Source of the DNA: Gemmatimonadota bacterium
GTDB lineage: Bacteria > Gemmatimonadota > Gemmatimonadetes > Gemmatimonadales > Gemmatimonadaceae
Reading direction: 5' to 3'
Assembly: GCA_031372565.1 (NCBI GenBank)
Contig: JANMLN010000022.1
Coordinates: forward strand, 1-31,907
Length of the DNA stretch: 31,907 nucleotides
Positions 2,631-31,888 of the stretch are shown one piece after another. Positions within the stretch are counted from its first letter, which is position 1; each line of letters opens with the position of its first letter. The translations under genes were made by a program, and so were the position numbers. Under the pieces are notes generated by a model. That model did not search any database, was not told the DNA's origin, and saw only the letters and a list, made by a program, of their open reading frames with translations.

Positions 2631-4025
2631 CTACGTCGCGGTCGCCAGCTGTCGCGCCCGCGGCACCGGCGTGTGCTTGTAGCGCCCCGGCAGTCCCATC
2701 GGCGGCTTCCCGATGTCCTCCCCGGCTGAGCGCAGCTCACGCGCGAGCTCTGCGCGGAACTTGCCGTAGTCCACTTCGACCGCGTGCCGCTGTCCGCCGT
2801 CAAAGTCATAGTGCGGATGCGCGAGTTCGTCGGCGATGGCCGCGTCGAGATCGGCCGGCCGGCGGTAGCGACCCTGCAGTTCGAGGCAGGCGATGCGCGC
2901 CTGGTAGTCGGCCAACGGCCAGATGCACCCGAGCGGCTGGAAGAGCCCGATGAAGTAGAGCGTCGGGTGCTCGGGGTGCAGCATCTTGCGGTAGAGCGGA
3001 ATCTTCTCGAGTCGCTTGAAGTTGACGAACGCTTCGTCGAAGAAGGGGAAGGTGGTCCAGAAGCCGGTGCACGCACAGATGATGTCGAACGCTTCGCGCA
3101 TGCCGTCGGTGAAGGTCACCTCGAGCCCATCCCACCGCGCGATGCCGCGACGCGGCTTCACGCGACCGTGCCGGATGAAGTCGAGCAGATCGGAGTTGAG
3201 TGTCGGATGCTGCGTGAGCGGCGGCCGCGGATTCTCCGGCAATCCGTAGCGGCTGTACGGCCCCTGCAACACGCGCAGCATCAGCCGGAACACGATCTGC
3301 CGGATCGCAACCGGGACCCACGCCGAGTGCGACGCAAACACGTCCGTCGGCTGCCCGAACAGGAACTTGGGAAAGAACCACTGCGGGCTGCGCATCGACA
3401 TGCACACGGTGCCCGCCACGCGCGCCGATTCCACCGCGACGTCGCACGCCGAGTTGCCGCCACCGATGACCAGCACGCGCTGTCCGCGCCAGCTCTCGTC
3501 GACGCCCTTGAAGTCGTGGGAGTGGAGGAAGCGGCCGGTGTATCTGCCGTCGTACTCGGGCACCTTGGGGTCCCAGTGATGTCCGCTGGCGACCATGAGC
3601 GCATCGAAGCGCTCCGTGGTGACGGTGCCGTCGGGGGCCTGCACGCGCACCGACCAGGCACCGCCCGGCAACGGCGACACGTGCTGCACCTCGTGGTTGA
3701 ACTGGATGACGTCCATCACGCCGAAGTGCCGCGCATACCCCTCGAAGTAGGCCTGCACCTGGCGGTGATTCGGATAGTCCGGATACTCGGCCGGCATCGG
3801 GAAGTCTTCGTACTCGGACCACGCCTTCGAGCTGATGATGTGCGTGTTCTCGTACACGCTCGAGTGGTTGGTGCGCGAGTTGAAGACCCAGTTGCCGCCC
3901 ACCATGTCGTTCTTCTCGTAGCAGGTGACGTCGAGACCGGCGACGAGACAGTTCTTGGCGGCGGCGAGGCCGCTTGGGCCCGCGCCGATCACGCAGACGC
4001 GTGGCGATGATGTGGAGGACGGCAT
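2631..4025 (-). CDS. Flavin-containing monooxygenase (class B, FMO-like)
   Basis: FAD motif GAGPSG, GGNW, FMO fingerprint YTGRFLHSHDF, NADPH motif GGGNS, and CTGF. Confidence 0.92.
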   Translation of the reverse strand: MPSSTSSPRVCVIGAGPSGLAAAKNCLVAGLDVTCYEKNDMVGGNWVFNSRTNHSSVYENTHIISSKAWSEYEDFPMPAEYPDYPNHRQVQAYFEGYARHFGVMDVIQFNHEVQHVSPLPGGAWSVRVQAPDGTVTTERFDALMVASGHHWDPKVPEYDGRYTGRFLHSHDFKGVDESWRGQRVLVIGGGNSACDVAVESARVAGTVCMSMRSPQWFFPKFLFGQPTDVFASHSAWVPVAIRQIVFRLMLRVLQGPYSRYGLPENPRPPLTQHPTLNSDLLDFIRHGRVKPRRGIARWDGLEVTFTDGMREAFDIICACTGFWTTFPFFDEAFVNFKRLEKIPLYRKMLHPEHPTLYFIGLFQPLGCIWPLADYQARIACLELQGRYRRPADLDAAIADELAHPHYDFDGGQRHAVEVDYGKFRAELARELRSAGEDIGKPPMGLPGRYKHTPVPRARQLATAT

Positions 4026-4027
4026 GC

Positions 4028-4040
4028 CCTCAATTTGAGG
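4028..4040. promoter_or_regulatory. Palindrome CCTCAA-T-TTGAGG overlapping the putative -10 (CAAATT, minus strand) of the FMO gene
   Basis: Perfect 6-bp inverted repeat immediately upstream of the ATG at 4025. Confidence 0.35.
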
Positions 4041-4080
4041 CGGCGCCGTGCGAGGCGCCTCCCCCTCTCGCCACGCCGGG

Positions 4081-4803
4081 TCAGCGGCCGCTGCGCCGGG
4101 TCAGTCGCCGCAGCGCGGAGTAACCGTCGCGGAGCATCCGGTGCCCCCACAACCACCCGCGCGCCACCGTGCAGGTGATGTCAGCCCACACGACCGTCGC
4201 GGCCCGAGCGGTGGCCGAGTGCTGGCGCGGCGCGAGGATCGCCGACCAGGCGATCGGCCACGGACCGCCGTCGCCCCGCAGGCGGACCCGGACGAGGTCG
4301 AAGCGGTGACTCAGCAGCCGGTTGAGCTGAGCGAAGGTGAATCGCTGCGGATGCTCGTCGGTCGGGTACGGCCGCTCGATGTGGACATGCAGCCAGAGCT
4401 GCCCACCGGGGGCCAGGTGTGCCTCCAGCACGGCGAGCAGCTCGTCCGGCGCCTCCATGTGGTCGAGCGCGTTGAGCAGCAGGATGAGCGAGAATCGCTG
4501 GTCGGGCAGCGCCTGCACGATCGGGTAGCGCTTGTCGGGGAAGCGGGCGTTGTACTCGTCCGCGAGGGCGTCGACCGCCACGACGCGCGCCTCCGGGGGG
4601 GCGAACACTTCGAGGACCGAGAACGGCCCCGAGCCGACGTCGGCGATCTGTTCACGCGCCCAGTCGAGCTGCGCGAAGGGGAAGAAGCCGCGATACCGCT
4701 CCAGATCCCGGCGCCAGAGCCGGAGTTCATTGCGCTCCCAGTACGCGAGCTCCGCCGAGAGACTCTGCTCGGTGGGGGCACCGGGAAGTGGTCGCGAGGT
4801 CAT
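4081..4803 (-). CDS. Class I SAM-dependent methyltransferase
   Basis: Motif I IADVGSGP, VVAVD, NALDH, LAPGGQL. Extended -10 TGcTACCTT lies 7 nt before ATG 4803. Confidence 0.8.
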   Translation of the reverse strand: MTSRPLPGAPTEQSLSAELAYWERNELRLWRRDLERYRGFFPFAQLDWAREQIADVGSGPFSVLEVFAPPEARVVAVDALADEYNARFPDKRYPIVQALPDQRFSLILLLNALDHMEAPDELLAVLEAHLAPGGQLWLHVHIERPYPTDEHPQRFTFAQLNRLLSHRFDLVRVRLRGDGGPWPIAWSAILAPRQHSATARAATVVWADITCTVARGWLWGHRMLRDGYSALRRLTRRSGR

Positions 4804-4865
4804 GGCGAGCAAGGTAGCAGGGCCACCGGTCGTGTCACCCGTGGCGTCACGGGGCGCAAACGACG

Positions 4866-4898
4866 CGCGCCCGCCCGTCAGGCGGACGGGCGGGCGCG
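4866..4898 (-). terminator. GC-rich hairpin, probable terminator of the lipoprotein gene
   Basis: 14-bp perfect stem CGCGCCCGCCCGTC/GACGGGCGGGCGCG with a 5-nt loop, 22 nt after the stop at 4921. The T-tract is weak (cgtcgttt). Confidence 0.55.
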
Positions 4899-4920
4899 GG
4901 GGTCGCTGGAAGCTGGCAGC

Positions 4921-5754
4921 TTAGTTCAGCGGGCAGGTGATGCCGGGATAGGCATCGGAGAACGACTCGAACCGGTTCTTGGTCGGATCGTAGACCTTGC
5001 TGGCGAAGGCGGCGTTGAACTCGCTGATGATCTGCGAGGAGGTGAGTCCGTAGGTCGGCGAGCCGATCGCGCCAGCGTTGAGGAACGCGCTCACCGTGTG
5101 CCGTCCGAGGGCGTTGAGACCACCGCCGCCCTGCGAGAGGACCTGCTGGAACGTCTTGTTGGGGAACGCGTTGGCGAACACGGCGCTGAACAGCGTACTC
5201 TGCGTGTACGGCGCCGGCCAGCGCCTGTGGTTCTTCCAGTAGCCCGGCGTGCAACCCTGCGTTGGTCTCACAGCCGAGACGTATCCGAAGTCCAGCGACA
5301 CGTTGGCTTCGCCGTCCGCAACCGTGGCGGTGGTGCACGAGCGGTTGCTATCGATCTCACGGTCCGCGCCCACTTCTGCGGCCGTCGGCGCGTAGGTCAT
5401 CGGCGTCACCGCCTCGACCGAGTACGTCCCCGCGGTCACATAGAACTGGTAGTAGCCGGTAATCGGATCGCTGACCTGCGTCTGGATCGGCGTGCCGCCG
5501 CACACCGTGCCGGCGTACAGGTTGAGCGTGACGTTCGGGAGTGGCGCGTCGCCGACATCCTGAATGCCGTTCCCGTTCACGTCGACCCACGTCAGATCAC
5601 CCAACGACGTGGCGAAGAAGAACGTCGACGTGCGATTGACGCGGTTCGTACTCTTCGGCGCGAGCGCGGACTGGTCGCTGCACGCAGCGAGCACGACGGC
5701 GCTTGCAACGGCCAGCGTGGTCAGCGGATGGCGCGTGGATGGCAGGCGGATCAT
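4921..5754 (-). CDS. Lipoprotein with SdrD B-like (Cna-B type) domain and C-terminal GCTPGYWKNH domain
   Basis: GGAG RBS before ATG 5754; lipobox LAAC; SLGDLTWVDVNGNGIQDVGDAPLPNVTLNL...GYYQF...GTYSV...LDFGY is SdrD_B-like. Confidence 0.8.
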   Translation of the reverse strand: MIRLPSTRHPLTTLAVASAVVLAACSDQSALAPKSTNRVNRTSTFFFATSLGDLTWVDVNGNGIQDVGDAPLPNVTLNLYAGTVCGGTPIQTQVSDPITGYYQFYVTAGTYSVEAVTPMTYAPTAAEVGADREIDSNRSCTTATVADGEANVSLDFGYVSAVRPTQGCTPGYWKNHRRWPAPYTQSTLFSAVFANAFPNKTFQQVLSQGGGGLNALGRHTVSAFLNAGAIGSPTYGLTSSQIISEFNAAFASKVYDPTKNRFESFSDAYPGITCPLN

Positions 5755-5836
5755 TGGGTGCACTCCAGAGATCGAATACGCAGGAAGTCGAGGCTGACGG
5801 CAGACGGAGGCGTCGCGGGCAACATGCCCTCGAGAC

Positions 5837-5931
5837 GCATGGAACATGCCATCGATAGCAGTCTGGAAGTCCTTATTCCACAACGCGTTAGGATTGTCAC
5901 ACGCCCCCTAGGTGTTGCGTGAACACAACAC
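5837..5931 (-). promoter_or_regulatory. Putative sigma54 promoter with IHF-like site and upstream palindrome
   Basis: Minus-strand TGGCATGTTCCATGC (5851-5837, GG-N10-GC); CCACAA-N4-TTA at 5878-5890; GTGTTG-N8-CAACAC at 5912-5931. Confidence 0.5.
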
Positions 5932-5966
5932 AACTGCGGGAGCAGGGCGGCGGCGAGGCCAGAGAC

Positions 5967-5996
5967 AGGCAGGTCCTTCGCTGTGCGCAGGTCGAC
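5967..5996 (-). repeat. REP-like 30-bp repeat, diverged copy
   Basis: Reverse complement GTCGACCTGCGCACAGCGAAGGACCTGCCT versus consensus GTCGTCCTGAGCGAAGCGAAGGACCTGCTT. Confidence 0.75.
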
Positions 5997-5998
5997 GG

Positions 5999-7510
5999 CT
6001 AGCGGTACGTCTCGAAGAAGCTCGGACCGCGCGCATCGAGACGCACACCGCCCAGCCGCCCGGTCAGTCGCGCCGTCCCCTTGAGCTGGATGAAGTACGG
6101 TCGCGGGACCTCGCGCGCCGCCACGCTCTCGCCGCGCTCGATCAGGCCGCGGCGCGTGTCCGTGCCCACCGCATCCTCCACCTCGAGCGCGATCATCAGT
6201 GTGTCCGCGCCGCGCACATCTGTCATCGTACCACGCTGCGGCACGCGCACGGCACGACCATCGACCATGATGGTGCGCGCATCGTCCCACGTGATCGCTC
6301 GCGGGCGGAACAGCGCGCGAAAGCCCAGGGAATCAACCAGATACAGGAACAGGGGCGCGCGCGCCGCACTGCTGTCAGCCTGCCGCACACGCCCGAACAA
6401 CAACGAATACTCCCCGGCGCGCGCCTGCCCCCACTCCCACTCGACGCGCCGCCACAGCCCCCAGTTATGGTCGTGATACGCGGGCGCCACGTCGATGCGC
6501 TCGCACCCCCCGCTCACGCAGATCGTGCCGCTGGCCTCCGCACGCAGCGCCGGTACCGCATAGCCCGACACCAGCCCGCCGGGAAGACCATCACCCAGCG
6601 AGGCGCCCGGGAAGTACGCGCGCGGCGACGGCGTCACCTCGAGATCCACGGTCGCGGTCTGCCCCGCGTCGGCTCCCTGCCCCGCGGCCGTGCCCGTCAC
6701 GCGATACGTCCCGCGATCGGTCACCCGTACGGCGCCGGGTCCCACCACCAGATCGGCCGCGTCGGTCGAGAACTGCACCGCGCTCGGTGGCACCTGCAGC
6801 GCGAACCGCCGCGCGCGCTGCCCCTCGGCGTGCAACGTGAACAGGAGCTGGCCTCCCCACCGACCGTCCGGCACGTTGCCCGCGATCATCCAGGTGAGGA
6901 AGGCCCACTTCCGCCCGCCGCTCCAGAGCACGTTCACGTAGTGCCACTCGCCCCAGCTCTCGCGCTCCGACACGCTCCGATCGGCGGGGGGCAGGTGAAA
7001 GTGATCGAGATCGTCGCGCAACTCGCGCGGCGTGGGCTGCATCCACCGGCGATCCGTGTCGTCGTCGTCCCACGCGCCGCTGGCCAGCGCTGGCGCCGCA
7101 CCGACCGCGCGTGTCGCCGACGGGATCTCGCCCGTCGCGCGCACCGACCACTCCTGCGCGCCGGCGCGCATCCACAACGTCTTCCCCTCCACCTGCGGCG
7201 CCACCGCGCGCACCGCACGCGCCAGCCGAGGCGACGCCAACAGCTGCTGATGGATGAACCGCGCGTTGGGAATCGAGAAGTACAGGCCACCCACCCCACC
7301 CGTCTTCATGACCTCGAGATCGAGCCCCTCCGGGAGCACCGTCACCTGCCCGCCGCCGATCAGCTTCTCGTCGCTCGCCTGTGCGAGCATCGCGGCGCCA
7401 ATCGAGAGCAGCACGATCATCACACCGACACCGATGCCGAACCCGACAAAGAGCAACGCGGTGCGCCACGGTTGATGCACGACGTTGCGCAGCGCCAGCT
7501 TCGCGATCAC
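5999..7510 (-). CDS. N-terminal half of a MacB/LolE-type ABC permease (TM1 + part of periplasmic domain) fused to an AttH/CrtC-like (lipocalin-type beta-barrel) domain
   Basis: MIAKLALRNVVHQPWRTALLFVGFGIGVGVMIVLLSI is a MacB-type N-terminus/TM1, and there are no C-terminal FtsX helices. WGEWHYVN and YHDHNWG resemble AttH/CrtC/tocopherol-cyclase-like motifs. GTGA overlap with the ATPase gene. Confidence 0.75.
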   Translation of the reverse strand: MIAKLALRNVVHQPWRTALLFVGFGIGVGVMIVLLSIGAAMLAQASDEKLIGGGQVTVLPEGLDLEVMKTGGVGGLYFSIPNARFIHQQLLASPRLARAVRAVAPQVEGKTLWMRAGAQEWSVRATGEIPSATRAVGAAPALASGAWDDDDTDRRWMQPTPRELRDDLDHFHLPPADRSVSERESWGEWHYVNVLWSGGRKWAFLTWMIAGNVPDGRWGGQLLFTLHAEGQRARRFALQVPPSAVQFSTDAADLVVGPGAVRVTDRGTYRVTGTAAGQGADAGQTATVDLEVTPSPRAYFPGASLGDGLPGGLVSGYAVPALRAEASGTICVSGGCERIDVAPAYHDHNWGLWRRVEWEWGQARAGEYSLLFGRVRQADSSAARAPLFLYLVDSLGFRALFRPRAITWDDARTIMVDGRAVRVPQRGTMTDVRGADTLMIALEVEDAVGTDTRRGLIERGESVAAREVPRPYFIQLKGTARLTGRLGGVRLDARGPSFFETYR

Positions 7511-8202
7511 GTGGCCTCGTCCTTCACGACCTGACCGTCGCGCAGCGACACGATCCGTCGACCGGCACGCGCCAGCGATGCGTCATGCGTCACGATCACG
7601 AGCGTCGTGCCGTCCGCGTTCAGCCGATGCAGCAACTTGATCACCTCGGCGCCCGTTGCCGCGTCAAGCTCGCCCGTCGGCTCGTCGGCCAGCAGGAAGG
7701 CCGGCTTGTTCGACAGCGCCCGCGCGATCGCGACCCGCTGCTGCTCGCCGCCGGAGAGCTCGCTCGGCCGATGCTGCGCGCGCGCCTTGAGTCCCACGTA
7801 ATCGAGCAGCTCCAGCACACGCGTGCGCCGCTCAGCCGTCGGGACCCTGGCCTCGGCCATCGGCAGCTCCACGTTCTCGAACGCCGAGAGCTGCGGCATC
7901 AGGTAGAAGCGCTGGAACACGAAGCCCACCTCGCGCAGCCGGAGCGCCGTCGCCTCCTGGTCGGACAACGTGGCCGTGTCGCGCCCCCGAATCTCGACCG
8001 CACCGGAACTCGGACGATCGATGGCGCCCAGCAGGTTGAGCATGGTGCTCTTGCCGCAGCCGCTGGGCCCGATGAGCGACACCCACTCGCCCTCGCGCAC
8101 GTCGAGCGAGATGCCGCGCACGGCGCGCACCGTCTCGGCGCCCAGCGTGAACTCGCGCTTCACGTCGCGGGTGGCGAGCACGACGGGACGGAGATCGGTC
8201 AT
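7507..8202 (-). CDS. ABC transporter ATP-binding protein (LolD/MacB family)
   Basis: Walker A GPSGCGKST, VGFVFQ, LSGGEQQRVAIARAL, LLADEPTGELD, VTHD. ATGA overlap at 8199-8202. Confidence 0.95.
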   Translation of the reverse strand: MTDLRPVVLATRDVKREFTLGAETVRAVRGISLDVREGEWVSLIGPSGCGKSTMLNLLGAIDRPSSGAVEIRGRDTATLSDQEATALRLREVGFVFQRFYLMPQLSAFENVELPMAEARVPTAERRTRVLELLDYVGLKARAQHRPSELSGGEQQRVAIARALSNKPAFLLADEPTGELDAATGAEVIKLLHRLNADGTTLVIVTHDASLARAGRRIVSLRDGQVVKDEAT

Positions 8203-9386
8203 GCGACGGCCTCGGTGCGCAGGGTGCGGGCAATGGGGAGCCGAGCGGCGCGCCACGCGGGGATCGCGCCCGCCATGAAGCCGGTCAACACGAGCAGCCC
8301 GAGCGCGCCGAACGCATCGCGCGCCTCGAACACGAAGAACGAGATGTGCTCGGGGAGACTCGGAAAGCCCGTGAGGATGCTGTTGAGCCACTGCGCCGTC
8401 ACGAGCCCGAGCCCGAGCCCGAGCGTGGCCCCGGCGAGCGCCAAGGCGAGCCCTTCGAGCATTACCTGCCAGGCAATGCGCGAGGCACCCACGCCAATGG
8501 CACGCAGCACCGCGATCTCGCCCAGCCGTTCGTTCACCGACACGGTCACGATCGTGGAGACGAGCAGGAACCCGACCACGAGCGAGATGCTGCCGAGGAC
8601 GAGCGCCATCTGGCGGAAGTAGCCCAGCCGCTCCTCGGCCTGTTTCACGGCGGACTGCGTCGAGAGCGCCGAGACGCGTGGCTGCTCGCGCGCGATGCGC
8701 ACGCCGACGGAATCCGGATTCCGCCCGTCACGCAACTTGAGCATCACGAGGGTCAAGCGATCGCGCCCGTCGGTTCCGCGCATGGCCTGCATCGTCGCGA
8801 GCGGCAGCGCCGCCGCCGACTGGTCCGCAGCGAGATAGGTGAACGACGCTTCGCCCACGATCGTGAACGGCTGCGCGCCCGCAAAGGTGCGCAGCTGAGG
8901 ATCGTAGCCGGCAGCGAGCGTGATCGTGTCGCCGATCGCGCGTCCGGTGGCCGCGAGGTAGGCCCGGTTGAACACGACTTCGTTCGGCGTCCGTGGGTTC
9001 CGGCCGCGCAGCAGGTTGTAGTCGCCCTGCGATTGCGGCGCGAGACCCAGGCCGAACGCCGTCACGGCGCCTTCGCCCTTGGGACTGTGCACGCTGCCGC
9101 CGAGCACGGGCGCCACCGTCGAGATGTCGGGGTCGCGCTCGAGCGCGGCCACGAGCTCCGCCGCGCCGCCGAGCGTCGCTTCGCCATCGAAGGGCAGCGT
9201 GCCGCGCGGACTCAATCGCAGCTGGAAGCCCTGCGCCTCGAGCAGTTGCTTGAACGACACGCGCATGCCGCTCGACATCATCACCATGTCGAGCAGCATC
9301 GCCGACGAGATCGCGATGCCCGCCAGCGCGAGCAGCGTGCGCGCGCGGTGGCGCGTCAGCGAACGGGCCGCCATCGCGATGATCAT
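8199..9386 (-). CDS. Full-length MacB/LolE-type ABC permease (MacB_PCD + FtsX)
   Basis: MIIAMAARSLTRHRARTLLALAGIAI (TM1), a periplasmic domain, SVNERLGEIAVLRAIG, and PAWRAARLPIARTLR. ATGA overlap at 9383-9386. Confidence 0.92.
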   Translation of the reverse strand: MIIAMAARSLTRHRARTLLALAGIAISSAMLLDMVMMSSGMRVSFKQLLEAQGFQLRLSPRGTLPFDGEATLGGAAELVAALERDPDISTVAPVLGGSVHSPKGEGAVTAFGLGLAPQSQGDYNLLRGRNPRTPNEVVFNRAYLAATGRAIGDTITLAAGYDPQLRTFAGAQPFTIVGEASFTYLAADQSAAALPLATMQAMRGTDGRDRLTLVMLKLRDGRNPDSVGVRIAREQPRVSALSTQSAVKQAEERLGYFRQMALVLGSISLVVGFLLVSTIVTVSVNERLGEIAVLRAIGVGASRIAWQVMLEGLALALAGATLGLGLGLVTAQWLNSILTGFPSLPEHISFFVFEARDAFGALGLLVLTGFMAGAIPAWRAARLPIARTLRTEAVA

Positions 9387-10198
9387 CGGCCGAGCAGCAC
9401 GAGCGGGGGCAGCTTCACGAGCCGCCGCGCCGCGAGGGCGCCCGTGACGAGGCCCAACACGACCGAGAGCGACACGGCGAAGGCGACGATCTCGGGCGTC
9501 ACGAGCGAAAAGGTCAGCGGGGTGCGATAAACCCCTTGGTAGTACCAGTTCACGATGGCCGAGGCCGCATAGCCGAGCCCCACGCCGAGCACGCTGCCCA
9601 CCCCCGCCACGACGGCGGCCTCGAGCACCACGCTGCCGATGATCGATCGCTCCGAGATGCCCATCAGCCGGAGCGCGGCCACTTCGCGCCGCCGCGCATC
9701 GACGCGCAGCAGCATGAGGCACAGCAGGAAGATCGCGCTCGCCACGATCGTGATCATGCCGATCGCCTTGTGGAACCGGTCGATCACGGCGAAGGTGCGC
9801 GAGCTCTCGACGGCGATCGCCTTGGACGGATAGGCGCGGAAGCCGAACGCCGAGGCGTTGATCTGTTCGACGGCGGCATCCGTGAGCGCATCACTCGTGG
9901 TCGCGACGGCGAACCGGTCCACGCGATCGCCGTACGCGAGTGCACGCTGCACGTCGCCCAGGTGCATGCGCACCCGGTACTCGGCGCGCGCCACTTCGCT
10001 CGGATCGGCGCCGCGCTTGACGAAGGCCGCGATGACGAGCGTGTCACCCAACCCGCCGGGCTCCTGCGACACGACGACCTTGTCACCGATCGCGAGCCGG
10101 CCGTCCGCGGCGAGGCGTTCGTCCACCGCAATGGTGCGCACGCGCGGTGTCGAGTCGACAGGCGCGGCGGCGGCGAGGGCGAGGAGCAGCGTCAGCAT
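9383..10198 (-). CDS. C-terminal half of a MacB/LolE-type ABC permease (FtsX domain) with its own signal peptide
   Basis: Short signal-like MLTLLLALAAAA, then IAVDERLA..LAIGDKV, RRREVAALRLMG and three C-terminal hydrophobic helices. Lacks TM1. Confidence 0.85.
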   Translation of the reverse strand: MLTLLLALAAAAPVDSTPRVRTIAVDERLAADGRLAIGDKVVVSQEPGGLGDTLVIAAFVKRGADPSEVARAEYRVRMHLGDVQRALAYGDRVDRFAVATTSDALTDAAVEQINASAFGFRAYPSKAIAVESSRTFAVIDRFHKAIGMITIVASAIFLLCLMLLRVDARRREVAALRLMGISERSIIGSVVLEAAVVAGVGSVLGVGLGYAASAIVNWYYQGVYRTPLTFSLVTPEIVAFAVSLSVVLGLVTGALAARRLVKLPPLVLLGR

Positions 10199-10234
10199 GG
10201 AAGCGTGAAACGTACCGGACGCCCCCGCTGTTCC

Positions 10235-10341
10235 GTCGTCCTGAGCGAAGCGAAGGACCTGCTTGTCGTCCGGAGCGCCGCGAAGGACCAGCGTGTTCCG
10301 GGGCCCACCACAAGCAGGTCCTTCGCGGCGCTCAGGACGAC
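10235..10341. repeat. REP-like cluster: two tandem 30-bp copies plus one inverted copy
   Basis: 10235-10264 GTCGTCCTGAGCGAAGCGAAGGACCTGCTT; 10265-10294 GTCGTCCGGAGCGCCGCGAAGGACCAGCGT; inverted copy at 10312-10341. Confidence 0.9.
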
Positions 10342-10348
10342 CGCGCGC

Positions 10349-11134
10349 TCAGGTCGCCACCTCTCCTGGCGACGGCTTCTTCGGCGCCTCCACCATCACG
10401 GCGCGCGCCACCGTGCTCCCGACCACGTGCGTGCGCCGCGCCTTCGCCCCCTTCCCCGCCACTTCCACCGTGAGCGGGCCGTCGAAGGGCGCCCGGGCCA
10501 GCACGGTCACCATCGTGCCGGGTTTGATGGCCAGCGACGCCACGTACCGCAGCAACGCCCCGTCTTCGTCGCCCACGGCAGCCACACGCGCTCGCTTGCC
10601 CACCGCCTGCTCGGCCAGCATCTGGCGCGGCACCAGGACGAGGGTGCCATCACGCGTCGGGATCGGGGCACCATGCGGATCGGTCGCGGGATGGCCGAGC
10701 GCGGCCGCCATCCGGTCGATCAGTTCATCGCTCGCGGCATGCTCGAGCCGCTCCGCTTCCGCATGCACGCGGTCCCAGGGGTAGCCGAGGGCATCGGCCA
10801 GGTAGGCCTCGATCACGCGGTGACGGCGCAGCATCCGCAACGCGGCGCGGCGGCCGCTCGCGGTGAGGCTGACCCCCTTGTAGCGCTCGTACGTGAGCAA
10901 CTCGAGCGCGGAGAGCCGCCGCAACATGCCCGTGACCGACGGCGGCGAGATGTCGAGTCGCTCGGCGATCGCGTTGGTCGCGGCCGGCCGGCTCGTCATC
11001 TCCTCCAGCTCGTAGATCGCCTTGAGGTAGTCCTCGACCGACCCGGTGAGCGGTTCGCCGGCCTCCGCGCCGTACCGGTCCCCGCCACCGGAGTGGCCAC
11101 GCTCGGCCGGACGCGACGTCTTGCGGGTGCTCAC
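10349..11134 (-). CDS. mntR: DtxR/MntR family metal-dependent transcriptional regulator with C-terminal FeoA-like domain
   Basis: VEDYLKAIYEL, ISPPSVTGMLRRL, RRHRVIEAYL, EAERLEH, DPHGAPIP. Start placed at the GTGA overlap with usp, which is uncertain. Confidence 0.9.
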   Translation of the reverse strand: MSTRKTSRPAERGHSGGGDRYGAEAGEPLTGSVEDYLKAIYELEEMTSRPAATNAIAERLDISPPSVTGMLRRLSALELLTYERYKGVSLTASGRRAALRMLRRHRVIEAYLADALGYPWDRVHAEAERLEHAASDELIDRMAAALGHPATDPHGAPIPTRDGTLVLVPRQMLAEQAVGKRARVAAVGDEDGALLRYVASLAIKPGTMVTVLARAPFDGPLTVEVAGKGAKARRTHVVGSTVARAVMVEAPKKPSPGEVAT

Positions 11135-11580
11135 GCGGAGCCCTTGGGCGATGCGAGCAGCGGATCGCGGACGAGCAGGACGGGCACCATCGAGAGGTGC
11201 CTGACGGTGCTGGCGACGCTGCCGAGCACGATGTCGGCGAGCAGCCGGTGCCCGTGCGTTCCCATCGCGATCAGGTCGCACTGCTCGCGTTCGGCGAGCG
11301 CCACGATCTCGCGGGCCGGGTCACCGCCGGCGAGGACGGCTTCCGCGTCGAGCCCCTCGTCGCGGAGCGCGGTTGCCAGCGCCTCGAGGTACGCGCGGTC
11401 CTTGCGCATCTCCTCGCTCTCCCGGAGCGCGAGCGCTTCCTGGTTGCGCGCCGCCCAGCCGTCGGCCACATGCACGAGCAGGAGCCGGGCGCCACAGTGC
11501 CGCGCCAGTCCCCGCACGTGGGCGAGGATGCACGCGTCGGTGCCGGTGTTCTCGAGCGGAACCAGGATGCGGCGATACAT
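11131..11580 (-). CDS. Universal stress protein (UspA family)
   Basis: MYRRILVPL, GDPAREIV, DLIAMGTHGHR...LGSVASTVRH..VPVLLV. Confidence 0.93.
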   Translation of the reverse strand: MYRRILVPLENTGTDACILAHVRGLARHCGARLLLVHVADGWAARNQEALALRESEEMRKDRAYLEALATALRDEGLDAEAVLAGGDPAREIVALAEREQCDLIAMGTHGHRLLADIVLGSVASTVRHLSMVPVLLVRDPLLASPKGSA

Positions 11581-11603
11581 GGGGCGTCAGCGCGGGGAGC
11601 CCA

Positions 11604-12986
11604 TCACGCCAACCACCCGCGCACGGTCTGCACGAGCAGCCAGCCGTTCAGCACCGCAATGACGCCGGCCACGAGCCAGCTCAGCACGGTCACCCATCTC
11701 GCATTCACGAGGTCGCCCATCTTGCGGCGGTCCGATGTGAACAGGATGAGCGGGAACACGGCAAACGACAGCTGCAGGCTCAGGATCACCTGACTCAGCA
11801 CCAGCAGCTTGGCCGTCCCGCTTGCGCCGAAGAAGATAGCGGTGACACCAGCGGGCACAATCGCGATGAGCCGCGTGATGAGACGCCGCACCCAGGGTTG
11901 CAGCCGCAGATCGAGGAACCCTTCCATCACGATCTGCCCGGCGAGCGTTCCCGTGAGCGTGGAGTTCTGCCCGCTGGCGAGCAGCGCAATGGCGAACACC
12001 GTGCTGGCGCCCGCCCCGAGGAGCGGTGTCAGCAGTTGGTAGGCATCCTGGATCTCGGCGACCTTCGTGTTGCCACTCGTATGGAACGTGGCCGCCGCGA
12101 CGATGAGGATGGCCGCGTTGATGAACAGCGCGAAGGTGAGCGCGATCGTGCTGTCGGCAAAGGCAAACCGGACCGCCTCGCGCTTGCCGGCGGCCGACTC
12201 TTCATAGCGGCGCGTCTGCACGATCGACGAGTGCAGGTAGAGATTGTGCGGCATCACGGTGGCGCCGAGGATGCCCATCGCGATGTAGAGCTTGTCGCGA
12301 TTGGTGATCACGTCGATGGTCGGGATGAAGCCGGCCATCACGGCCGCCACGTCCGGCTTCGAGAGGACGAGCTCGAACATGAAGCAGACGCCAACCGTGA
12401 CGACGAGCGCCACCACGAGCGCTTCCAGCAACCGAAACCCGCGAGACTGCAGCGCCAGCACGATCAGCACGTCGAACATCGTGGCCGCGACCCCCCACGG
12501 CAGCGGCATGCCGAAGAGCAGGTTGAGCGCGATGGCCGTGCCAATCACTTCGGCCAGATCGCAGGCGGCGATCGCGAGCTCGCACAGGACCCAGAGCGCG
12601 AGGGCGACCGGCCGGGGATAGGCGTCATGGCAGGCCTGCGCGAGGTCGCGCCCCGTGGCGATGCCAAGCTTGCTGGCGAGCCCCTGCAGCAGCACCGCCA
12701 TCAGGTTCGAGATCAGGATGACGCAGAGCAGCGAATACCCGAACTGTGATCCACCCGCGAGGTCGGTGGCCCAGTTGCCCGGGTCCATGTAGCCGACGGC
12801 CACGAGATATCCCGGCCCCGCGTACGCGAGCAGCTTGCGGAACCAGCTCGTGCCGACCACCGGAATCGTCCGATACGCCTCAGCGAGCGATGGCGTCGGC
12901 CGGGCGTGCCGCCAACCGTCGGCGGACCGGTGCGGCGGAGTGGGATCGCTCGGAGGGAGCGGCGGCGGGAGTATCGGGGCGGCCAT
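11604..12986 (-). CDS. mntH: Nramp family Mn2+/Fe2+ transporter
   Basis: [45 protein letters not shown]. Confidence 0.95.
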
Positions 12987-22447: not shown

Positions 22448-22477
22448 AAGCGGGTCCTTCGCTTTGCTCAGGACGAC
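22448..22477 (-). repeat. REP-like 30-bp repeat
   Basis: Reverse complement GTCGTCCTGAGCAAAGCGAAGGACCCGCTT, 28/30 identical to the copy at 10235. Confidence 0.85.
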
Positions 22478-31828: not shown

Positions 31829-31888
31829 GTGGGCCGGAGCGCGGCGAAGGCCCCCGTCGTCGTCCTGAGCGAAGCGAAGGACCTGCTT
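31829..31888 (+). repeat. REP-like repeat: one exact copy preceded by a degenerate tandem copy
   Basis: 31859-31888 is identical to 10235-10264. 31829-31858 (GTGGGCCGGAGCGCGGCGAAGGCCCCCGTC) is a decayed 30-bp unit. Confidence 0.85.

Follow-up and report, generated by a model that had tools for sequence, protein, structure and literature searches.

A MacB/LolE-type permease unit apparently split between two genes, with an AttH-like domain at the break, in Gemmatimonadota

What defines type VII ABC systems is a four-helix permease unit together with a periplasmic partner. The locus described here raises the question of how two proteins that each resemble only part of such a unit fit into an operon that also encodes a complete permease and an ATPase. 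The operon lies at positions 5999–10198 on the minus strand of contig JANMLN010000022.1 from a Gemmatimonadota bacterium, and the whole 31,907-nucleotide stretch that was analyzed is called the window. The original prediction, made from the letters of the DNA, held that a second permease unit is assembled from the two pieces and carries an AttH/CrtC-like domain at the split point. Its observation was confirmed and, as far as architecture goes, its interpretation is supported. With a probability of roughly 70%, the four genes encode one type VII machine of the MacB/LolCDE class, an AttEFGH-like extractor whose second unit is split and has the AttH-like domain attached.

Two partial permease genes in one operon

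Four head-to-tail genes encode, in order, a 271-residue protein (9383–10198), a 395-residue permease (8199–9386, with its ATG at 9386), a 231-residue ABC ATPase (7507–8202) and a 503-residue protein (5999–7510), all on the minus strand, as are the features within them given below. Start and stop codons overlap at the three junctions (ATGA, ATGA and GTGA), and the gene coordinates, lengths, order and translational coupling proposed originally were recovered unchanged. The G+C content of the window is ~70%, and G+C at third codon positions (GC3) is 0.87–0.91 in the 503- and 271-residue genes, in the range of real genes here. A promoter scan found no sigma-70-like promoter within 5800–10500, and an Rfam search of the window matched no family. 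Two terminator-like sites were detected, both inside the 503-residue gene, and their number is not above chance.

The 395-residue protein is a complete permease unit of the MacB/LolC type with four transmembrane (TM) helices and a full periplasmic domain. Pfam MacB_PCD (PF12704) matches residues 17–231 with 53.2 bits against a gathering score of 27, FtsX (PF02687) matches residues 263–384 with 58 bits against a cut-off of 25.5, and the four helices were counted by hydropathy. The ATPase is a standard MacB/LolD-type nucleotide-binding domain (Pfam ABC_tran, expectation value (E) 1.8e-34, 119.7 bits). Its best NCBIfam matches are the MacB nucleotide-binding domain, LolD and FtsE, with MacB and LolD below their own cut-offs. 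For the 271-residue protein, the 395-residue protein and the ATPase together, the NCBIfam search returned MacB, LolC/E, LolD and FtsX models, all far below cut-off.

The 271-residue protein corresponds to the C-terminal half of a unit. Its sole Pfam match is FtsX at residues 146–265 (9404–9763; E 8e-19, 68.3 bits against a cut-off of 25.5), which is also matched by 41 of 41 relatives. Hydropathy places TM helices at residues 146–164, 186–215 and 237–255, in agreement with the proposal that this protein supplies the three FtsX helices. They are preceded by a periplasmic half-domain (residues ~17–135; 9794–10150) and by a short, hydrophobic, signal-like N-terminus (residues 1–13; 10160–10198), which across 53 family members is variable in sequence and usually hydrophobic. 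The partial MacB_PCD match predicted beside FtsX was found in relatives: four of 16 scanned singly matched profile positions 117–206, 118–206, 113–205 and 116–206, and the best of them (positions 117–206) scored 24.5 bits, below the cut-off of 27. Alignment of family profiles with hhalign placed residues 17–264 on residues 131–384 of the 395-residue permease (probability 98.8%, E 7e-17). The AlphaFold2 (AF2) model has a predicted local distance difference test (pLDDT) score of 78, and its Foldseek matches, spanning ~260–290 columns, are LolE (top), a pneumococcal MacB-like permease (Spr0695-type), MacB, LolC, HrtB and YtrF, with E values of 5e-6 to 7e-5.

The 503-residue protein begins with a candidate N-terminal half. 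Its sole hydrophobic helix, at residues 19–37 (7400–7456), would be TM1 of the split unit, and residues 17–151 (7058–7462) match MacB_PCD profile positions 1–114 of 207 with an E value of 3.2e-5, which corresponds to the first half of a MacB-type periplasmic domain. The match is present in 40 of 41 family members. An NCBIfam search of the 503-residue protein returned nothing. Within the periplasmic half-domain, a glycine-rich stretch at residues 47–80 (7271–7372) is nearly invariant across relatives, and residues 68–78 are without a counterpart in the 395-residue permease in the hhalign alignment. Residues 47–80 may form a functional loop specific to the split unit.

One helix in the 503-residue protein and three in the 271-residue protein make four, the number in the 395-residue permease, and the split unit has four TM helices, with a large periplasmic domain lying between the first and the second, only if both proteins are pooled. 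Together the halves cover MacB_PCD positions 1–206 of 207, each alone scoring below the gathering score. In profile alignments, of which that of the N-half is weak, the two breaks map to residue 131 of the 395-residue permease. The halves abut without overlap or gap, because the MacB_PCD ranges (1–114 and ~117–206) and the hhalign ranges (395-residue positions 1–131 and 131–384) meet at one point. Judged by these profiles, the 503- and 271-residue proteins are complementary, non-overlapping parts of a second permease unit, as the original prediction had it. The periplasmic chain of MacB runs through Porter into Sabre and back into Porter (PMC5985334). On the basis of lengths and of profile positions, and with the MacB boundaries of that source, the break would fall within Sabre, and the periplasmic half of the 271-residue protein would comprise the second part of Sabre and the second Porter beta-alpha-beta element.

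Residues 1–155 of the 503-residue protein were co-folded with residues 18–271 of the 271-residue protein using alignments paired by locus. The interaction score (ipSAE, interaction prediction score from aligned errors) was 0.56 (runs of 0.56, 0.59 and 0.54), compared with 0.00 for the best of three controls. The runs share at least 92% of contacts, and partner pLDDT is at least 69. Of 157 solved complexes, 116 reach the mark passed by the pair, as do 2 of 215 mismatched pairs; only 18 of the 157 solved complexes score 0.60 or below, and so do both passing mismatches. For this pair of fragments, the model lends weak support to the proposed co-folding of the halves.

An AttH-like two-barrel domain

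The 503-residue protein ends, according to its predicted structure, in a domain of ~345 residues (residues ~158–503; 6002–7039) with the AttH/CrtC two-barrel fold. The SCOP AttH-like fold consists of two orthogonally packed lipocalin-like beta-barrels (PMC2954199). The AF2 model, computed with a 26-sequence alignment, has block-mean pLDDT values mostly of 76–96 over residues ~160–503, with a few blocks at 46–69, and is mainly beta-strand over residues ~185–502, forming a double beta-barrel. Its best Foldseek match in the PDB is 2ICH, a putative AttH (NE1406), with an E value of 7.8e-14 and a target-normalized template modeling score of 0.64. The next matches are CghA, Fsa2, Phm7 and related pericyclases (Diels-Alderases), kievitone hydratase and 25-phosphosteroid lyase. 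All 18 listed rows with E < 1e-8, from 10 PDB entries, are AttH-fold structures; after them the E value jumps to 7e-5 and worse. Sequence identity in the alignments to AttH-fold enzymes is 11–15%. A protein-language-model atlas returned CrtC, AttH, Svf1 and Diels-Alderase clusters with feature scores of 0.94–0.96.

The original expectation of a partial MacB_PCD match together with an AttH, CrtC or Lipocalin_9 match was met in its first part by Pfam. The second part failed as a Pfam match and was recovered as an AttH/CrtC fold by AF2, Foldseek and the atlas. Since no Pfam model of the superfamily matches, the domain is a diverged branch seen only by fold. Among the 41 relatives, Pfam gave marginal matches to AsqO_C (5 relatives, E 0.03 at best) and Tocopherol_cycl (10 relatives, E 0.023 at best).

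Both motifs picked out in the first reading are present and conserved in an alignment of 41 sequences. All seven residues of YHDHNWG (residues 345–351; 6458–6478) are invariant. In WGEWHYVN (residues 186–193; 6932–6955), W186, E188, W189, H190, Y191 and N193 are invariant, G187 varies, and the position of V192 is F in at least 90% of the 41 rows. D393, R402, C331 and C336 are invariant as well. The last two are the only cysteines of the protein (6503–6520) and would fit a periplasmic disulfide. The pattern of invariant polar and aromatic residues appears to resemble an active site more than a passive pocket. CrtC requires H239, W241, Y266 and D268 (Rubrivivax numbering; PMC4717167), and the invariant H348-N-W350 forms an H-x-W triplet like H239/W241 of CrtC, a resemblance at the level of pattern only.

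The two-barrel fold of the 503-residue protein is common to CrtC (carotenoid 1,2-hydratase), kievitone hydratase, archaeal Hgs, fungal Diels-Alderases and 25-phosphosteroid lyase, and these AttH-fold enzymes likewise have many invariant aromatic and polar residues. They are soluble or free-standing, whereas the domain described here would be part of a transporter subunit. The characterized AttH-like proteins are isoprenoid hydratases (PMC4717167; bioRxiv 10.1101/2025.10.20.683597), and AttH-fold enzymes hydrate isoprenoid double bonds, including those of membrane lipids (bioRxiv 10.1101/2025.10.20.683597).

Relatives and surroundings of the operon

Across Gemmatimonadota, relatives of the operon keep both the gene order and the break point. 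A scan of species genomes, in which YHDHNWG was one of two peptide patterns, yielded 475 relatives, and the best 80 loci (L001–L080) were examined. All 80 are Gemmatimonadota records except one labeled 'bacterium' and one labeled Kuenenia. By tblastn and open reading frame (ORF) mapping, the four genes occur in the same order in 62 of the 80 loci, and the other 18 are cut by contig ends. Every locus with at least 2900 nucleotides upstream (58/58) has this order, and the break point is the same, as the original prediction implied. The 62 loci with the same split come from independent assemblies and have identities of 49–85%. Genes overlap at the 271/395 junction in 28 loci, at the 395/ATPase junction in 45 and at the ATPase/503 junction in 42 (n = 60; the frameshifted loci L015 and L076 were left out). 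Mean column identity is 59–70% in the 503- and 271-residue families.

Protein searches scored 8000 candidates per query, with matches counted at E ≤ 0.001 and the best 120 per query listed. The 503-residue query gave 2994 matches, the best 120 of which are 467–515 residues long and, where named, all from Gemmatimonadota. The 271-residue query gave 3357 matches, with lengths of 257–296 residues among the best 120. An exhaustive search of cluster representatives with the 503-residue protein turned up 526 clusters at E ≤ 0.001; those of full length measure 459–510 residues and extend down to 32% identity, and no unsplit form of ~760 residues is among the 150 cluster representatives listed. A tblastn search against plasmids found only a 200-residue Sulfitobacter hypothetical protein in an unrelated context. 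A 271-type gene that is normally full length would have spoken against the split, and no credible full-length version was found; a search for longer proteins yielded three close relatives of the 271-residue protein and no more, each a single-sequence cluster.

Four candidates for an unsplit form, all single-sequence clusters, were rejected. P0337 (720 residues) is a frame-garbled ORF over ATPase and 503-type sequence with no Pfam match, P0395 is also frame-garbled, and P0393, compared with the 395-residue permease, is a read-through of 271-type and 395-type genes. P0394 carries a repressor domain and is therefore probably a gene-call error that joins a regulator to a 271-type gene.

A few loci depart from the common form. 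The permease and ATPase genes are in pieces in L015 and L076, both long-read assemblies of metagenome-assembled genomes, and these breaks look like sequencing frameshifts, not biology. L080 is from a bin labeled Candidatus Kuenenia stuttgartiensis and has a typical Gemmatimonadota-type operon at 55% identity; the bin is probably contaminated. An extra coding stretch of ~150–200 residues lies between the ATPase and the 503-type gene in 7 of 80 loci. It is a separate gene in L005, L009 (5411–6001), L010, L014 and L031, the end of which overlaps the 503-type start in at least three loci (L005, L009 and L010), whereas in L024 and L040 it extends the C-terminus of the ATPase. The stretch has no Pfam match and no obvious signal peptide.

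Directly upstream of the operon and on the same strand (10349–12986) are genes for a FeoA-domain regulator of the DtxR/MntR type, a universal stress protein (Usp) and an NRAMP transporter. A rough count of GC3-filtered ORFs found upstream relatives of the regulator, Usp and NRAMP genes in at least 20, at least 24 and at least 36, respectively, of the 62 loci with a 271-type gene, and a DUF72-like gene downstream in 30 of 80 loci. This conserved neighborhood may be inherited synteny within one family instead of a functional link. From gene order, a link of the operon to manganese or stress is possible. Control by a manganese riboswitch or by MntR was dropped as an idea; there was no RNA match, and an operator was not searched for. 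The first ~75 residues of the longest regulator ORF (11056–11281) are Arg/Ala-rich, lack a domain match and overlap the Usp gene, and the true start of the regulator is probably further downstream. Downstream of the operon (2631–5883, minus strand) lie genes for a protein that looks secreted and has an SdrD B-like domain, for a small methyltransferase and for a flavin monooxygenase, none of which is among the conserved neighbors of related loci.

An intergenic cluster of repeats with a ~32–35-nucleotide unit in direct and inverted copies lies just upstream of the operon (10235–10341). Three of these copies are arranged as long inverted repeats with 91% complementarity. The GC-rich core GCGAAGGACCTGC has 8 matches in the window at ≤2 mismatches, compared with 1.96 expected, with sites at 10235–10341, 5969–5981, 22450–22462 and 31874–31886. 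Four matches are immediately upstream or downstream of the operon, and at least two others (23851 and 28429) are inside predicted genes. The repeat looks like a REP-like (repetitive extragenic palindromic) or MITE-like (miniature inverted-repeat transposable) element, or a terminator cluster.

Competing explanations and the proposed machine

Several results weigh against a split second unit with an AttH-like domain attached. The MacB_PCD match of the 503-residue protein scores 24.7 bits, just below the gathering score of 27, and in alignment mode (E ≤ 10) only 11 of 41 members of the 271-residue family match this model, all below the gathering score. BLASTP of the 503-residue protein against the 395-residue protein was not significant (E 1.9). 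The similarity over residues 1–147 noticed by eye in the original prediction is therefore no better than chance taken alone and fell as a pairwise match, but it stood at the profile level through MacB_PCD. The hhalign comparison of the two families aligned residues 1–148 with 1–131 only weakly (E 0.002, probability 13%), a PDB profile search with the 503-residue family found only TM1 (5XU1 chain M, E 0.23), and AF2 gave pLDDT < 50 over residues 38–149 of the 503-residue protein alone. At the other end of the protein, Pfam matched no family at E ≤ 0.1 over residues ~158–503 and no AttH/CrtC model in the 41 relatives at E ≤ 10, and no NCBIfam model matches the AttH-like domain. Of the CrtC quartet, the H-x-W is only a candidate equivalent, and no Y-x-D was seen ~27 residues downstream of it. 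The support from co-folding is weak, and the pass may reflect likeness to solved structures instead of binding, because MacB and LolCDE are solved. Finally, the upstream neighbors point to metal or stress biology, not to lipids.

In a rival arrangement, judged improbable, a homodimer of the 395-residue protein with the ATPase is the transporter, the 503-residue protein is a membrane-anchored AttH-like periplasmic partner, comparable to TesA or EnvC, with a permease-derived anchor, and the 271-residue protein is a separate three-TM accessory, so that no second permease unit is rebuilt. The 395-residue protein is complete, and MacB and FtsX act as homodimers (PMC5985334). The low pairwise and profile-profile scores of the N-half, the absence of a confident fold for residues 38–149 alone and the weak co-folding are what this arrangement would give. 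However, the pieces fall on abutting ranges of one Pfam profile, 1–114 and ~117–206, and meet at the same residue of the 395-residue permease. The half-domain of the 503-residue protein belongs to its best-conserved regions (residues 47–80 are nearly invariant), and the anchor is therefore unlikely to be a relic. Without TM1 and one half of the periplasmic domain, the fold of an FtsX protein would be incomplete, and the co-occurrence of the two pieces is strict (58/58 loci). Less probable again is that the operon is the lipoprotein-release system (LolCDE) of Gemmatimonadota with the AttH-like barrel as a tethered, LolA-like acyl-chain acceptor. The heterodimer-like anatomy with one ATPase gene, the presence of lolCE and LolD among the best NCBIfam matches, the rank of LolE as the top Foldseek match of the 271-residue model and a barrel fold suitable for acyl chains all agree with it. 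The family models themselves do not: lolCE (TIGR02212) scores 54 bits against 362.45, LolE (TIGR02213) 35.6 against 540.35 and LolD (TIGR02211) 227.2 against 307.75. A covalently tethered acceptor would be unable to shuttle cargo to the outer membrane, and the AttH-like fold differs from the LolA fold. An artefactual split or gene decay, through a frameshift, a faulty assembly or a pair of pseudogenes, is hardly credible. The window is just one sequence of high GC, and frameshifts do occur in some long-read related loci (L015 and L076), but the same split is found in the 62 independently assembled loci at 49–85% identity, GC3 is 0.87–0.91 in both genes, and conservation is strong (mean column identity 59–70%). 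No single frameshift makes the pair, and the original argument against a recent frameshift holds: such an origin is excluded because the C-half gene comes first, two genes from the N-half.

The nearest described operons are attE-H and Rv0986-0988 (PMC3982062). AttEFGH of Agrobacterium tumefaciens and Rv0986-Rv0988 of Mycobacterium tuberculosis, like the operon described here, combine genes for an ABC ATPase, for two permease units and for an AttH-like two-barrel protein (PMC3982062), a match at the domain level only. AttH is a separate protein in AttEFGH (PMC3982062), whereas here the AttH-like domain is joined to a segment that corresponds to a permease unit's N-terminal third, and the second unit lies in two genes at opposite ends of the operon. 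In Rv0986-0988 the two permease units are fused into one protein (PMC3982062), unlike here. The association of AttH-family genes with LolD-like ABC genes was noted in the NE1406 structure paper (PMC2954199). NE1406-type AttH (2ICH) is the best structural match of the extra domain, which is here too diverged for the Pfam AttH/CrtC models.

The closest worked example of an extractor with a periplasmic enzyme is YbbAP-TesA of E. coli, in which substrates taken from the membrane are offered by a type VII transporter to a periplasmic hydrolase bound to it (PMC12646458); the analogy is one of mechanism, not of membership. TesA is a separate SGNH-type hydrolase bound non-covalently, whereas the barrel here is covalent, and YbbP is a fused 10-helix double permease, whereas the units here are separate or split (PMC12646458). 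The NCBIfam YbbP model gave 16.7 bits against a cut-off of 999. LolCDE resembles the operon in having two different four-TM units and one kind of ATPase, in giving the best structural matches of the 271-residue model and, by analogy, in the extraction of lipid-anchored cargo. It differs in that the scores of the Lol family models are not reached here, one unit is split, and there is no free LolA-like shuttle. The organizations of units set out in a 2018 review of the MacB family are a fused or separate ATPase, homo- or heterodimers, and YbbP- or BceB-type double permeases, and a unit split inside the periplasmic domain is absent from that list (PMC5985334). Among the published full texts searched, which excluded subscription-only literature and supplements, there was no type VII permease split in the periplasmic domain or fused to AttH.

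If the split-unit reading is right, the N-terminal region of the 503-residue protein and the 271-residue protein would assemble in the membrane into a LolE-like unit, which would pair with the 395-residue unit and two copies of the ATPase. The 271-residue piece would need its own signal-like N-terminus because the break would lie in the periplasmic Sabre subdomain; this segment would export its first ~130 residues across the membrane. A break within Sabre would also hold the AttH-like domain on the periplasmic domain, probably at its tip. By mechanotransmission, the machine would then pull a hydrophobic molecule from the inner membrane and pass it to the tethered barrel. The barrel would hold the molecule or, more likely given its many invariant polar and aromatic residues, transform it by hydratase- or lyase-type chemistry. 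A lipid- or isoprenoid-related function is suggested by analogy. Our best guess for the substrate is an isoprenoid or lipid, because the characterized AttH-fold enzymes hydrate isoprenoid double bonds, including those of membrane lipids.

A bolder extension is that the split solves a topological problem by placing a periplasmic lipid- or isoprenoid-modifying enzyme, hydratase- or lyase-like, covalently in the permease through a break inside Sabre, so that extraction and modification are mechanically coupled, and that the conserved NRAMP, Usp and DtxR/MntR neighbors upstream tie this remodeling of envelope lipids to manganese or oxidative stress. This extension is doubtful; if true, the split would mark a new class of transporter-enzyme chimera. 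The arrangement is a candidate phylum marker, widespread in Gemmatimonadota, a soil phylum that has been little studied, and with none seen outside it in the best 80 of the 475 loci. If the split-unit reading is true, the Porter/Sabre domain can be built from two chains, a new organization of the MacB four-helix unit. An AttH-like domain fixed covalently at a defined point of the transporter would provide a testable model for the role of the AttH family beside ABC transporters, among them AttEFGH and the virulence-linked Rv0986-0988 locus (PMC3982062).

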